Shown: one piece after another, positions 5,790 through 12,310 of the stretch
How positions within the stretch are numbered: position 1 is the first letter of the stretch
Layout of the letters: every line of letters starts with the position of its first letter
Source of the DNA: an uncultured Verrucomicrobiae bacterium
Lineage (GTDB): Bacteria; Verrucomicrobiota; Verrucomicrobiia; Chthoniobacterales; UBA10450
Assembly: GCA_963741065.1 (NCBI GenBank)
Contig: CAVUGV010000018.1
Location: 44,733-108,732, forward strand
DNA: 64,000 nt
Direction of reading: 5' to 3'
The notes under the pieces: generated by a model
Databases searched by the model: none
The model's input: only the letters and a program-made list of their open reading frames with translations
Told to the model about the DNA's origin: nothing
Program-made: the position numbers and the translations under genes

Positions 5790-7773
5790 ATGATCGCGTT
5801 AAAAAACAACATCGGCAGCGAATTTGTTGAGCGTGTCCGTACATTCTTTTCTAAAGAGGGGCCGCTCTCCAAAGCGAAGAACTTTGAGTTTCGTCCGCAA
5901 CAGCAGGAAATGGCGGCGAGTGTCGCGAAAGCGCTGGAGGAAGAGCGCCATCTGGTGATTGAAGCGGGAACCGGCGTGGGCAAATCGCTCGCTTATCTCG
6001 CGCCGTCGATCCTTTTCGCACTCGAGCGGCACAAAAAGGCGATCGTTTCCACGCACACAATCAATCTTCAGGAACAACTGCTTTATAAAGACATTCCGAT
6101 TTTAAAAAAAATGCTGCCGGTCGAGTTTGAAGCAGCGTTAATGAAAGGCCGGCAAAATTATCTTTGCCCGCGCCGGCTCGAGCGCGCGTTGCAAAGCTGC
6201 GAAGGAACTTTTCACCGGCCCTGAGGAAAGCGAATTGCGACGCCTTGCCCAATGGGCAAGCACGACCCGTGACGGATCACTCAGCGATTTATCAGTGGAG
6301 CCCGATCCAAAAGTTTGGACGCAAGTTTGCAGCGAAGCGCACATCTGCACCCAGAAAACGTGCGGACAAAATCCGCGCTGTTTTTATCAGCAGGCGCGCA
6401 AACGTTTGCTCGCTGCGGACGTGATCGTGCTCAATCACACGTTGCTGTTCATCTTGCTCGGCTCGCCAGATGCACAGCAAGAACGCGAGAGCGGTTTTCT
6501 TTTTCCGAATGACTTCATCATCTTCGATGAAGCGCACACAGTCGAGCAGGTCGCATCCAAGCAGATCGGTATCGGCGTTTCGCAGTATGGACTGCGATCC
6601 ACGATCCAGCGGCTTTACAATTCGCGGACGCGCAAAGGACTGTTCACTGTAATGCGTGACGCGGAGGGCGTGCGACTCGCGGCGGAACTGATTGATGATG
6701 TTGAGAAATTTTTCGCGGCGGTCGAATCGAGAGCGAATTTTCGCAAAGGACGCGAGTTTCGCGTCCGCGATGTCGATTTTGTTCCGGACACAATCACTGG
6801 CCGGTTGACCGCGCTTCAGGCACGGATCGCCGAAGCGGTGAAACGCGCCGATGACGAAATTTTGAAAGCCGAGCTGCAGGAATACGGCCGGCGGATCCGC
6901 GACGCGCGGGACGGCATCGCCATTTTTCTCGAGCAAAGCGCGCCGGAACACGTTTATTGGGTCGAGCGCACCGGCAAAACGGAGCGGTTCCTCGCGCTCA
7001 ACGCTGCGCCGGTCGATCTTGCCCCGGTGCTACGGCGAATGCTCTTTCGAGACAACTGCTGTTGCGTGATGACCAGCGCCACGCTGGCCGTAGGCCGGCC
7101 CGATCTTGCCTATTTTCGTGAGCGCATCGGCGCGAGCGAGGCGGAACCGTTGCGGCTCGGCAGTCCCTTCAATTTTCAGCGGCAAATGAAAATGTTCGTC
7201 GTCCAAAAAATGCCCGACCCGCGCGACGCCGCTTATCAGAGAGAATTGGAGCGATGGATCGCGCATTTCGTTGAAAAGACCGATGGGTGCGCCTTTGTCC
7301 TTTTCACAAATTACCGCGACATGCAGCACGTCGCAGGCGCGATGCAGAAATTTTTTGTGGAGAAGGGCATGAATCTTCTGATGCAAGGAGCGGACGCGCC
7401 GCGGAGCAAGCTGCTTGAACAATTTAGATCAACGCCGCGTAGTGTACTCTTTGGCACCGATAGTTTTTGGGGCGGCGTGGATGTTCCGGGCGAAGCGCTT
7501 TCGAATGTGATTATCACACGGCTGCCATTTGCCGTGCCCGATCATCCGCTCGTTGAAGCGAAACTCGAGCTGATCGAGGAACGCGGCGGCGATCCATTCA
7601 CCGAATACTCCCTGCCGGAAGCGATCCTGAAACTCCGCCAGGGCGTAGGCCGCCTGATCCGAGCCAAAACTGACCGCGGCATCATCGTTATTCTCGACAA
7701 TCGCATCGTCTCCAGGCCCTACGGCCGCGCCTTCCTGCAGGCGCTGCCAAAATGTCCGGTGGAGATTGTCTAG
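5790..7773 (+). CDS. dinG: DinG/XPD-family ATP-dependent helicase (one frame break near 6195)
   Basis: Walker A AGTGVGKS, DEAH box FDEAHTVE, four-Cys cluster region (C..C..C..C at 6300-6400). Frames join as ..RALQ/AAKELFTGPEESELRRLAQW. Confidence 0.85.
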
Positions 7774-7778
7774 TAAAC

Positions 7779-7792
7779 TGTTCACTTGAACA
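7779..7792. promoter_or_regulatory. candidate LexA (SOS) box TGTTC-N4-GAACA
   Basis: TGTTCACTTGAACA is a perfect palindrome, 22 nt upstream of the imuB-like ORF start. It matches the LexA motif reported for Verrucomicrobia (recalled from the literature) and sits ahead of a classical SOS mutagenesis cassette. Confidence 0.6.
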
Positions 7793-7813
7793 TATAGAGG
7801 AATTTGTCGTAGA

Positions 7814-8800
7814 TTGCCTGCATGGAGGGACTCAATGCAGGCGCAGGAAATCTTCGAGATTCTCCACAAGTGGGGGATCCACACGCTTGGGCAGCTGGCG
7901 GCGTTGGATAAGGAGCAGCTGGAAGCGCGACTTGGCCCGGAAGCAAGCCGAATGTGGGAGCGCGCCAACGGGCGATCCATTCGAGTTCTCAAACTGGTTC
8001 GACCGCCGGAGTCGTTCGAGGAGAGCTTCGAATTCGAGCACGAGATCGAAACAGCCGAGCCGCTCCTTTTCATGCTCCGCCGTTTTCTGGAGCAGCTCAC
8101 GCTGCGGCTGACTGGAATCTATCTCGTAACAAAAGAACTGACGCTGCAAATTACGTTCGCGAATTCACGCCAAGACGAACCCGTCGTGGCGGGCAAACAG
8201 TTTTATGAGCGCGTTTTCAAAATTCCGCAGCCGACTAACGATGTCGATCTTCTCTTTCGCATGCTCCAGACGCACTTGGAGAATTTTCGATCGAAACATC
8301 CGATCGTGGCAGTCGCGCTGAGTGCGCAACCGATTAAACCCGCCAGCGAACAATTCGGATTATTTGAAACGACACTGCGCAATCCGCATCAACTATCGGA
8401 AACGCTCGCGCGTTTGACCGCCCTGCTTGGAAGCGAACGCGTCGGCACGCCAGTCATCGAGGAAACGCATCGGCCAGATGCATTTCGCATGGAACCGTTT
8501 TCGTGGGATGGGCTTCCAGCCCATTCAATCGGCAGGATGCCGATGCCACGTCCAGCTCTGCGAAGATTTCGGCCCGCAGTGTCTGCATCAGTTTTAGTGG
8601 ATGGAGACACCCGGGCGCATCTTTGCAGCGCAGAAATTTGCGGGAAAGTCATCGAGCAACATGGGCCGTATTTGATTTCTGGAAATTGGTGGGGCGAAAA
8701 ATCCTGGGCGCGCGCCGAATGGGATGTGCAGCTGCAGGATGGCGAGCTCGTTCGATGTCCACGAAACGGAGCGAACTTGGGAAATGGACGGCATCTATGA
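7814..8800 (+). CDS. imuB: ImuB-like protein lacking the N-terminal Y-family polymerase-like part
   Basis: 328-aa ORF. ..IHTLGQLAALDKEQLEARLGPEASRMWERANG.. resembles the HhH/little-finger region of ImuB. Directly precedes dnaE2. About 180 N-terminal residues expected from full-length ImuB are absent. Confidence 0.65.
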   Translation: MPAWRDSMQAQEIFEILHKWGIHTLGQLAALDKEQLEARLGPEASRMWERANGRSIRVLKLVRPPESFEESFEFEHEIETAEPLLFMLRRFLEQLTLRLTGIYLVTKELTLQITFANSRQDEPVVAGKQFYERVFKIPQPTNDVDLLFRMLQTHLENFRSKHPIVAVALSAQPIKPASEQFGLFETTLRNPHQLSETLARLTALLGSERVGTPVIEETHRPDAFRMEPFSWDGLPAHSIGRMPMPRPALRRFRPAVSASVLVDGDTRAHLCSAEICGKVIEQHGPYLISGNWWGEKSWARAEWDVQLQDGELVRCPRNGANLGNGRHL

Positions 8801-8831
8801 CTGGAGATCGAAGTCGTCTATGACGAGTCAT

Positions 8832-8859: not shown

Positions 8860-9281
8860 AAAATGCCGATTTGACGCTTCAATCGTTTCAATCGCTTTAA
8901 CTCGGAATCATGTCCTACATCGAGTTACACGCATGCAGCGCCTTTAGTTTTTTGCGCGGCGGCTCTTTCCCCGAGCAATTAGCTGAAGTCGCAGCGGAAT
9001 TGGAAATGCCGGCGATGGCGTTGCTTGATCGCAACGGCGTTTACGGCGCGCAACGATTTTCCGTCGCCGCGCGCGAGCACAACGTGCGCGCGATCATCGG
9101 CTGCGAATTGTCGATGGAAGACGGCAGCATTTTGCCGGTGCTGGTCGAAAATCGCACCGGTTACAAAAATTTGTGCGAACTACTCACCCAGGCGCATTTG
9201 CGCAGCGAAAAAGGAAAATGCGTGGTGCGTTGGGGTGAACTGCCGCAGTTCGCAGAAGGATTGGTAGCGCTTTTGGGATCG

Positions 9282-9409
9282 GGGAGCACAGGCTGCCAGC
9301 CTGTAGCTTCCGGCAGCTTGCCGGACGCCGGGTGCGAGGGCGTGCGCGTGATTCGAAGAGGTTTGCGGCAAGCTGCCGCAAACAACAGGCTGGCAGCCTG
9401 TGCTCCCCA
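9282..9409 (+). repeat. family-A palindromic element, copy A2, translated in frame inside dnaE2
   Basis: GGGGAGCACAGGCTGCCAGCCTGT ... ACAGGCTGGCAGCCTGTGCTCCCC are near-perfect terminal inverted repeats. The host ORF stays open and DnaE2-like on both sides. Confidence 0.85.
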
Positions 9410-11651
9410 GAACGCAGAAGATCGCGCGCGGTTTTTGATTGACGCGTTTGGCCGCGAAAATGTTTTCGTCGAAATTCAGCGGCATTTCATTCGCGGCGAG
9501 GAACGGGTCAATCGCGAACTGATCGATCTAGCGCGTGCACATCGATTGCCGCTTATCGCCACGAACGGCGTGCAATACGCGAAGCCGTACGGACGCGAAG
9601 TGCTGGATGTTTTCACCTGCATTCGCGAACACACGCATCTCGATGCTGCTGGCAAATTGCTGACGCAAAACGCCGAGCGCCATCTGAAGAGCGATCGCGA
9701 AATGCGAGCAATTTTCGCGGATTTGCCGGAAGCAATTGAAAATACATCGCGCCTGGCCGAGCGGCTCACGTTTTCGCTTGAGAATCTCGGTACGAATTTC
9801 CCGAATATCCCGTGCCGGCCGGACACAGCATGGATTCATTTTTGCGCACCATCGTCTGGTTCGGCGCGCAACAACGTTACGCCGCGATCAGCGCAAAAGT
9901 GAAACGCCAGCTCGAGGAAGAACTCGCGCTGATAACGCAAACTCGGGTTCCCCGGCTATTTCCTGATTGTCTGGGACATCGTCAATTTCTGTCGCGAACA
10001 CAACATCATGGTCCAGGGCCGCGGCAGCGCCGCCAACAGCGCAGTTTGTTATTGCCTCGGGATCACGCCGGTTGATCCGGTTGAAAATCATCTCGTCTTC
10101 GAACGATTCCTCAACGAGAGCCGCAAAGGCTGGCCGGATATCGATCTGGATCTTCCCAGCGGCGATCGGCGCGAAGCGGTGATCCAGGAAATTTATCGCC
10201 GCTACGGCAAACACGGCGCGGCGATGACCGCGAACGTGATCAGTTATCGCGGACGCAGCGCCGCGCGCGAGATCGGCAAAGCGCTGAATTTTTCGCCGAG
10301 TATTATCGATCGCTTTTCGCATCTGTTTGCGAACGGCGATTTTCCGCACACGACTCGAATTGGAATCACAGATCGAGCAGGCCGGTTTGCCAAAAATCAT
10401 CCGCGGATGCCGGCATTCATTCGACTGTATCACGCGATCTACGGCTTGCCGCGGCATCTCGGCCAGCATTCCGGCGGCATGATTATCTGTCAGAACAAAC
10501 TGAGCTCATTTGTGCCGCTGGAAAACGCCTCCATGCCGGGCCGCGTCGTCGCGCAATGGGACAAGGACGATTGCGAAGATCTCGGCATCGTGAAAGTCGA
10601 TCTGCTCGGGCTCGGGATGATGTCGGTGATGCAGGATGCGTTTGAGCTTTGCCGTGAACGCGGGCGACCTCTCGATCTGGCTCACATTCCAAAAGATGAC
10701 GCGGCGACTTTCGAGATCATGCAGCACGCCGACACGATCGGCGTTTTTCAAATCGAAAGCCGCGCGCAAATGGCGACGCTGCCGCGGATGAAACCGGAAT
10801 GTTTTTACGACGTCGTGATTGAGGTGGCGATCATTCGCCCGGGGCCAATCCAGGGCGACATGGTGCATCCTTATCTCGCGCGGCGCGCCGGCGAAAAGAG
10901 CCAATCACGTATTTCGACGAACGACTGAAGCCCGTGCTACAGCGCACTCTTGGCGTGCCGTTGTTTCAGGAACAAATGCTCAAGATCGCGATGGTCATGG
11001 CGGATTTTTCCGGCAACGAGGCCGAGGAGTTGCGACGCGCACTGAGTTTTCATCGTTCCGAGGAACGAATGCAAGAAAGTGAGCGTGAAATTGCGCGCGG
11101 CCATGGAGCGAAAAGGCGTCGCGCCGGACAAAATTGAGAAAATCATTCAATCGATCTCGTCGTTTGCGCTTTACGGGTTTCCCGAATCGCACGCGATCAG
11201 TTTCGCCATTCTCGCTTACGGCAGCGCGTATTTGAAAGTGCATCGCGCCGCCGGAATTTTACGCGAGCCTGTTGAACAATCAGCCGATGGGTTTTTACAC
11301 GCCGGCCACGATTGTGAAAGACGCGCAGCGGCATGGGCGTAAAGTGCAAGCCGGTTTGCGTCATGAAGATCGGACTGGCGCTGCAGCGTTGTTGACGACG
11401 ACACAGTTTCGACTGGGGTTTTGCGTCGTGAACGGATTGCGGCAGGAACACGCCGAAGAACTCGTCAGGCAACGGCAAGATCGACAATTTGAGTCGTTGG
11501 AAGATTTCAAGCGGCGAGTTCCTCTGTCGAAAGACGAATTGCGCACACTGGCAGAATTAGGCGCGCTGAATTGTTTTGCCGAACATCGCCGCGCGGCGAT
11601 GTGGAAAGTGGAAGAAACGCTGCATGATGATTTGCTCGATCGCACGACTCC

Positions 11652-11781
11652 GGGGAGCGCAGGCTGCCAGCCTGCAGTTTGCGGCAGCTTGCCGCAAACA
11701 TCTCGCACACGATGCGTGCAAACACCCTGAAGAGCGTTCCGCAAGCTGCTGGACGCGGCAGGCTAGCAGCCTGCGCTCCCC
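11652..11781 (+). repeat. family-A palindromic element, copy A3, inside dnaE2, with in-frame TGA and TAG
   Basis: GGGGAGCGCAGGCTGCCAGCCTGC ... GCAGGCTAGCAGCCTGCGCTCCCC. The flanking dnaE2 segments (11272.. and 11806..) share one frame. Stops at 11728-11730 and 11764-11766 lie inside the element. Confidence 0.85.
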
Positions 11782-12253
11782 AGAAAAGAATCGCCCCTCG
11801 CGCCAATGACCCTATCCGAGCGTGTGCGCGCAGATTACGAAACAATGAATCTGACGACCGGACCGCATCCGATGAAACTGTTGCGCGAAAGTTTGCCGAA
11901 TATTTGGCGCGCGATCGATCTTGTTCACGCGCGCCATGGCTCAACCATTCAGATCGCCGGCAACGTGATTTGCCGTCAGCGTCCCGGCACAGCGAAAGGA
12001 TTTGTTTTCATCAGCCTGGAAGACGAGACCGGCGTTTCAAATGCAATTGTCGAGCCAGATCTGTTCGAACAATTTCGGCTCGTCATTACCGAGGAAGCGT
12101 TTCTGCTCATCGAAGGCGAAGTGCAAAATTCAGACAACGTCGATTTTGATCAAAGCGCGCGACATCAGGCCGCTCGCACACCTGCCCGCAATGCTAGCGA
12201 TGCAGGCGGGCGAACAACTCGTCGGAAGCGAGTCGCACGATTTCCACTAATGT

Positions 12254-12310
12254 TGTAGCCGCTTCGCTGTGCGAAGCGTCGCGCTGCCGCCCACTAGGGC
12301 GGCGGCTACA
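12254..12310. terminator. compound hairpin between convergent dnaE2 and gnd (REP-like, probable bidirectional terminator)
   Basis: TGTAGCCGC ... GCGGCTACA outer stem enclosing cgcttcgc-tgtg-cgaagcg and gccgccc-acta-gggcggc hairpins. Confidence 0.5.

Follow-up and report, generated by a model that had tools for sequence, protein, structure and literature searches.

Two complementary imuB genes at separate loci with predicted LexA boxes in the bacterial family of Candidatus Udaeobacter

At the base of the GTDB family to which Candidatus Udaeobacter belongs, imuB was cut in two. The halves lie at two loci under predicted LexA control, and their products would form a two-piece ImuB; we put the probability of this reading at about 75%. 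In many bacteria, mycobacteria among them, damage-induced mutation is mainly the work of the DnaE2 mutasome, which ImuB organises. The reason why ImuB retains a dead polymerase core is, to our knowledge, not understood. Locus A consists of a box, lexA, a second box, imuA and a gene for the N-terminal part of ImuB (imuB-N), and lies on contig C51. Locus B consists of dinG, a box, a gene for the C-terminal part (imuB-C) and dnaE2, and lies in a 64,000-nucleotide stretch of the same metagenome-assembled genome (MAG), here called the window.

Results

Gene order in the window

The forward strand of the window carries a dinG/yoaA-like DEAH helicase gene (5790–7773), which matches NCBIfam YoaA/DinG and Pfam Helicase_C_2, as expected from the sequence-only reading, which had dinG ending at 7773. 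It occupies two frames in this assembly, with a break near 6224–6235, and is a single 660-aa ORF in relatives. Five bases past its stop starts TGTTCACTTGAACA (7779–7792, assigned to neither strand), a 14-bp palindrome picked out by sequence scan and by its conservation in relatives as a predicted LexA operator.

The next ORF (7814–8800) matches Pfam IMS_C, the Y-family little finger, and only the C-terminal halves of Pol IV models matched it. It aligns with full-length ImuBs from residue ~180 to the end, and the ~175 N-terminal residues are absent. As read here, imuB-C spans 7835–8800 on the forward strand and encodes 321 aa, the C-terminal two-thirds of ImuB. The identification of this ORF as an ImuB without its N-terminal third, proposed from the letters alone, is borne out by the IMS_C match, by the alignment from residue ~180 and by a Y-family fold in AF2 and Foldseek analysis (below). 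A start near 7814 did not hold up as well: ATG 7835 or ATG 7822 is more likely than TTG 7814, and 7822 is the probable start should the C at 7833 be an indel. A frame break near 8758 affects the C-terminus, and the true 3′ end appears to lie in another frame after ~8758.

Downstream, dnaE2 (8910–12258, forward strand), an error-prone Pol III alpha gene, was recognised from NCBIfam error-prone DNA polymerase matches on four ORFs. It lies here in at least four pieces, with palindromic-repeat inserts, and is a single ORF of 1039–1116 aa in most relatives examined. Palindromic repeat elements occur at 9282–9409, 11652–11781 and 1974–2094 of the window; they are translated, both inside dnaE2 and in the interval from fmt to pyrH, into peptides of the kind ..GCQPV...

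A second locus with lexA, imuA and imuB-N

Homology to imuA, lexA or imuB-N was not found within the window. The absence of imuA noted earlier therefore stands for the window and fails for the genome, as imuA is found on contig C51 together with lexA and imuB-N. A search of the genome for TGTTC-N4-GAACA, suggested at the outset, returned six exact sites, one of which lies at this locus. On the gene strand, C51 carries lexA, then TGTTCACTTGAACATATA, then an imuA homologue, then imuB-N. All 18 bases of TGTTCACTTGAACATATA recur in the window; read on the gene strand, the C51 box that precedes imuA is identical to the window box. The lexA gene is complete (TIGR00498, 170 bits). The ImuA homologue matches NF033429 at E 1.4e-5, and is 42–47% identical to the imuA genes of two outgroup cassettes and 32–36% identical to those of the other two.

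The ATG of imuB-N lies 4 nt past the imuA stop. Its ORF begins MFATIYLPNF, ends ..FLAPLPIETLATSSPGFW, and is ~175 aa long. Intact relatives cover Pfam IMS positions 1–146 of 148, corresponding to fingers and palm, and the ImuB-N profile aligns with residues 12–180 of E. coli Pol IV (PDB profile match). Opposite the SLDEAY segment of Pol IV, ImuB-N reads veatap, with Ala and Thr aligned to the catalytic Asp and Glu, and its N-terminal IYLPNF takes the place of the DxD of active enzymes. ImuB-N is a catalytically dead fingers-and-palm unit. An AF2 model of ImuB-N made from a shallow alignment was poor (pLDDT 48), and the fold was assigned from Pfam and the PDB profile match.

Convergent on the end of imuB-N is a conserved gene whose product is a ~60-aa membrane protein (L002 4831–5016 on C51, and the same place in L037–L043), with a gene for an RRM-type RNA-binding protein beyond it.

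The two pieces fit together at a single cut point. The window ORF begins M..QAQEIFEILHKWGIHTLG, and in the fused ImuBs of four other families of the same order ..FLAPLPLSDLEPDSALEMILGGWGVRTLG.. reads across the cut point uninterrupted. As the fused proteins read through it, the window ORF and the C51 ORF are complementary pieces. The N-terminal half ends 3–7 residues past ..PLPIETLA in relatives (7 in this genome), and the C-terminal half starts ~10 residues ahead of ..ILHKWGIHTLG. These alignments place the cut in the palm/thumb linker of ImuB. In place of the single polypeptide of ~480–560 aa that is canonical ImuB, the family has ORFs of ~175 and ~330 aa, at separate loci throughout. The Y-family domains (fingers/palm, thumb and little finger) are all present, spread over the two genes, with IMS on ImuB-N and IMS_C on ImuB-C. 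A duplicated junction was considered and dropped, since a comparison of the imuB-N tail with the sequence preceding imuB-C gave no significant residual nucleotide homology, only matches of 6–8 nt at E 0.25 or higher.

Domains of ImuB-C

An intact relative of ImuB-C, 88% identical, was modelled with AF2 (mean pLDDT 67), and the domains were placed on the forward strand of the window by model and alignment. A thumb/HhH region (EIFEILHKWGIHTLGQL...; 7847–7972) is indicated by alignment to full-length ImuB, by Foldseek and by AF2 helices, which form a helical thumb at residues 7–48 of the relative (pLDDT 75–85). The little-finger domain (8021–8344) is assigned by Pfam IMS_C and by a beta-alpha-beta-beta-alpha-beta unit in the model (residues 65–171, pLDDT 76–92). 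It is followed by QFGLF (8351–8365), a motif of the beta-clamp-binding type whose Q, L and F are invariant in the alignment and which aligns with Q..LF of outgroup full-length ImuBs; in the model it lies within a disordered stretch. A RecA-NT-like helix and strand (LSETLARLTALLG..VG; 8384–8464), conserved with full-length ImuBs, is presumed to be an ImuA-binding element. In the model a helix at residues 188–202 fits the RecA-NT pattern, a motif defined and proposed as an ImuA contact previously (PMC6511836), and a long linker follows. The C-terminal beta-rich ImuB-C domain (8555–8801) is supported by alignment and by AF2 strands at residues 249–325 of the relative (P0003); its last strands are out of frame here.

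Foldseek matched the ImuB-C model to Y-family polymerases with E down to 1e-10, and a phmmer search of ImuB-C against PDB sequences gave no match. The C-terminal 150 aa align with full-length ImuBs. In a 2026 survey of complete genomes, thumb, little finger and ImuB-C domain formed an irreducible core that is present in the shortest ImuBs too, and of which the thumb and ImuB-C domain contact DnaE2 (PMC12926913). The window ImuB-C keeps all three, together with the clamp motif and the RecA-NT-like helix.

Inserts are seen in some relatives. L030 and L033 (genomes G018 and G014) have an in-frame insert of ~25 codons directly after the imuB-C start codon, which suggests that the new N-terminus of ImuB-C is free and tolerant; others have inserts of 11–25 residues within the little finger (NSRQ..EPAVAG).

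Conservation and selection

A short imuB-C of ~300–400 aa was present in 80 of 80 species-level loci, most of them with dinG as a conserved 5′ neighbour and most with dnaE2 on the 3′ side, and neither imuA nor imuB-N was found within 3 kb of imuB-C in any of the 80. Across the GTDB family, imuB-C was found in 74 of 81 genomes and 35 of 36 genera, with open frames of 303–421 aa, and imuB-N in 78 of 81 genomes and all 36 genera. No fused imuB, and no frame near 500 aa, was found among the 74 genomes carrying imuB-C. Metagenomes yielded ~1760 standalone ImuB-N proteins at E ≤ 1e-5, the best 120 listed being mostly 174–178 aa, and thousands of ImuB-C homologues, of which the 120 closest are all short (316–371 aa).

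Both halves of imuB are under purifying selection: Nei-Gojobori dN/dS was 0.16 for ImuB-C (71 sequences) and 0.14 for ImuB-N (20 sequences), and 0.20 for ImuA. As relatives carry imuB-N as an uninterrupted, selectively constrained ORF, imuB has been split rather than shortened. The proposal of a natural mini-ImuB was thus half right, in that the short ImuB is natural and conserved.

Four sister families in the same order (Chthoniobacterales) have a fused (lexA-)imuA-imuB-dnaE2 cassette with imuB frames of 492–568 aa. Homologues at ≤53% identity are nearly all 480–560 aa and match from near residue 180. Comparison of these sequences places the fission early, at the base of the GTDB family containing Candidatus Udaeobacter.

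The strongest competitor to a two-piece ImuB is that ImuB-C alone serves as the DnaE2 adaptor and ImuB-N has a separate role, with ImuA, with LexA or outside the mutasome. ImuB-C does contain all the known or modelled contact elements for clamp, ImuA and DnaE2, ImuBs reduced to thumb, little finger and ImuB-C domain occur in other lineages (PMC12926913), and a few short homologues of ~310–385 aa are found elsewhere. We nevertheless consider this unlikely, as ImuB-N is kept in every one of the 36 genera sampled, at a uniform ~175 aa and with the low dN/dS given above, and imuB-N always sits tight behind imuA and behind LexA boxes, the position it has in the fused cassette.

State of the assembly

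The MAG is 77% complete, and compared with relatives its dinG, imuA, imuB-N, imuB-C and dnaE2 all contain frame breaks. These could be taken to mean that the arrangement is a misassembly, or the pseudogene remnant of a dying cassette. Against this, dozens of independent assemblies, some of them built from short reads, show the junction of dinG, box, short imuB-C and dnaE2. Two single-base insertions disturb imuB-C here, a C at 7833 and a T at 8758, and neither is present in a near-identical short-read contig (mean column identity 94%); removal of the C brings ATG 7822 into frame, and the product then begins MEGLMQAQ... In addition rpoB (G000 C30:107890–111642) lies in three frames with two in-frame TGA codons, so that frame breaks are a property of this assembly. 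A dnaE1 gene was not found in this MAG. Given the short-read contig and the broken rpoB, the breaks were treated as assembly indels, which they look like, rather than decay, and artefact or decay is a very improbable account of the split.

At 8775–8825 of the window the last ~8 codons of imuB-C (..TWEMDGIYD) seem to be tandemly duplicated, and the repeat copy is out of frame. In the near-identical contig L128 an insert of 11 residues occupies this position, and the L128 stop codon TAG corresponds to GAG in the window.

Origin of the split

In ~32 family genomes, belonging to many genera, the two loci are 7–14 kb apart and divergent. In G021, G019, G065 and G109 the map shows, from left to right, imuB-N, imuA and lexA pointing left, then dinG, imuB-C and dnaE2 pointing right; between the two loci lie the same two membrane-protein genes as are found 5′ of dinG in the window. 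The segment between the divergent loci is bounded by the two halves of imuB. Because inverting this block restores the order lexA-imuA-imuB-dnaE2, a single inversion with a breakpoint in imuB is the simplest origin. The gene order thus makes it most likely that the split arose from one inversion of ~7–10 kb, with one breakpoint within imuB. In most Udaeobacter genomes, including this one, the loci appear since to have become separated.

The proximity and opposite orientation of the halves (~10 kb apart in many genomes) might also suggest programmed rejoining, by site-specific inversion, an intein or RNA trans-splicing, to restore full-length ImuB, which we regard as scarcely credible: significant repeats were not found at the two ends, the N-terminal half ends a few residues past homology, too soon to accommodate an intein, many genomes have the loci far apart, on other contigs or in the same orientation, and none of the 74 family genomes shows a fused form.

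Some sister genera have a gene for a helical-repeat protein of 640–660 aa, with only a weak Pfam ELYS match, between dinG and imuB-C (for example L129 5215–7206 and L130 5414–7348; also L078, L118, L121, L124 and L126). The LexA box precedes this gene in some sister genera and follows it in others. No homologue of the protein was found in this MAG.

Predicted LexA boxes and a putative imuB-C promoter

The sequence TGTTC-N4-GAACA is reportedly the verrucomicrobial LexA operator, a finding attributed to Erill and colleagues in 2016. The window contains two sites with at most one mismatch, against 2.2 expected, and the genome's six exact sites compare with ~2.3 expected. By themselves these counts are weak evidence, and it is the position of the box that carries weight. 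A perfect box lies at most 260 nt upstream of imuB-C in 73 of the 80 species loci, and phylogenetic footprinting across 66 species found the locus B box and a following TAT near-invariant, with varying flanks. The claim of a LexA-type box at 7779–7792 is strengthened accordingly by its near-invariance. At locus A, a one-mismatch box (TGTTCATTTGAACT) is found upstream of lexA in 10 of 10 loci, and a box upstream of imuA in 9 of 10, seven exact and two with one mismatch. On that attribution and this footprinting, the palindrome is predicted to be a LexA site. Conservation across relatives of a short imuB-C with its own LexA-type operator also agrees with the earlier argument against a simple 5′ deletion; the imuA/imuB 5′ segment that was to be sought upstream in the window is not there, and lies on C51.

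Two further perfect boxes, both on contig C28 of this genome (G000; L003), mark candidates for uncharacterised SOS genes. One (C28:3799; L003 3799) is ~45 nt upstream of a 150-aa ORF that has no Pfam match, and the other (C28:8710; L003 8710; TGTTCACATGAACATATC) is ~80 nt upstream of a minus-strand start.

A putative imuB-C promoter (7786–7815, forward strand) has a −35-like TTGAAC (7786–7791) inside the box, an 18-nt spacer and a −10-like TAGATT (7810–7815). In relatives TAGATT or TAAATT keeps a constant 18-nt spacing, except in two loci, where it is 16 nt, and ATG comes ~6 nt later. A scan for the sigma-70 consensus gave 8 of 12 matches and did not call the proposed promoter. Such a promoter, with its −35 element inside the operator, might produce a leaderless or very short-leader mRNA.

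RNAfold shows an inverted repeat, CCTGCAT...ATGCAGG (7817–7841, forward strand), enclosing ATG 7822 and ATG 7835. Most relatives (L048–L127) have a small hairpin just past the −10-like element, with the start codon in or next to the loop, in two sequence versions, GCCTGC..GCAGGC and GAGCGC..GCGCTC. Pair counts gave 72% paired, compared with 59% for shuffled sequences, and GC/CG exchanges distinguish the clades; RNAalifold predicted no structure in the start-codon region. We regard support for this hand-drawn hairpin at the imuB-C start as moderate.

Discussion

The reading we prefer is that of a two-piece ImuB. LexA would repress both loci, and DNA damage would therefore induce all four proteins together. 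ImuB-C would act as a hub tethering DnaE2 to the clamp and to ImuA. ImuB-N, made together with ImuA, might then dock non-covalently on ImuB-C or on ImuA to rebuild the protein; reassembly of the two parts is our preferred mechanism, and is conjecture. A stronger form would make ImuB an obligate two-subunit protein, with dead palm and fingers alongside ImuA and a thumb, little-finger and ImuB-C hub alongside DnaE2, assembling only when both LexA-controlled loci fire. We offer this tentatively, at slightly less than even odds.

A family of very abundant soil bacteria has kept the dead core as a separate selected gene since the origin of the family. The cut, exactly at the palm/thumb boundary, indicates natural domain boundaries for constructs, and the split makes it possible to test directly if the dead core is required and what its binding partners are. 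It also shows that an SOS operon outlasted the breakage of one of its genes, each piece having a predicted LexA operator before it. If ImuB is indeed a two-subunit protein, the arrangement could act as a regulatory or stoichiometric checkpoint on mutasome assembly, and would be a natural dissection of what the dead ImuB core is for.

The canonical LexA-regulated (lexA-)imuA-imuB-dnaE2 cassette is said to have been described by Erill and colleagues in 2006 and 2016 in Caulobacter, Pseudomonas and other Verrucomicrobia. The system described here shares with it the four genes, their order within each piece, a leading LexA palindrome, an inactive Y-family ImuB and the DnaE2 polymerase, but differs in that imuB is divided into a pair of genes, at separate loci that have an operator apiece, and in that a dinG/yoaA-like gene precedes imuB-C and dnaE2. 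A literature search for a split inside imuB, or for the Udaeobacter SOS response, found no published description. An imuB divided throughout a family into two genes that are both under selection and both preceded by a LexA box would appear to be a variant of the known cassette.

The mycobacterial cassette is likewise divided between two chromosomal loci, imuA'-imuB and dnaE2, both damage-inducible (PMC10421592, quoted in PMC6511836). The mycobacterial cut falls between genes and imuB is whole, whereas here it falls inside imuB, at the palm/thumb linker. DnaE2X systems have a 'split ImuB' made up of iPolY and a standalone ImuB-C domain protein, with RecA as partner (PMC12926913), and so resemble the present case in having a modular ImuB and provide a precedent for a two-protein ImuB equivalent. 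The division in DnaE2X systems comes after a whole Y-family core, whereas here palm and thumb are parted, the genome has an ImuA homologue, and a canonical ImuB has undergone secondary fission.
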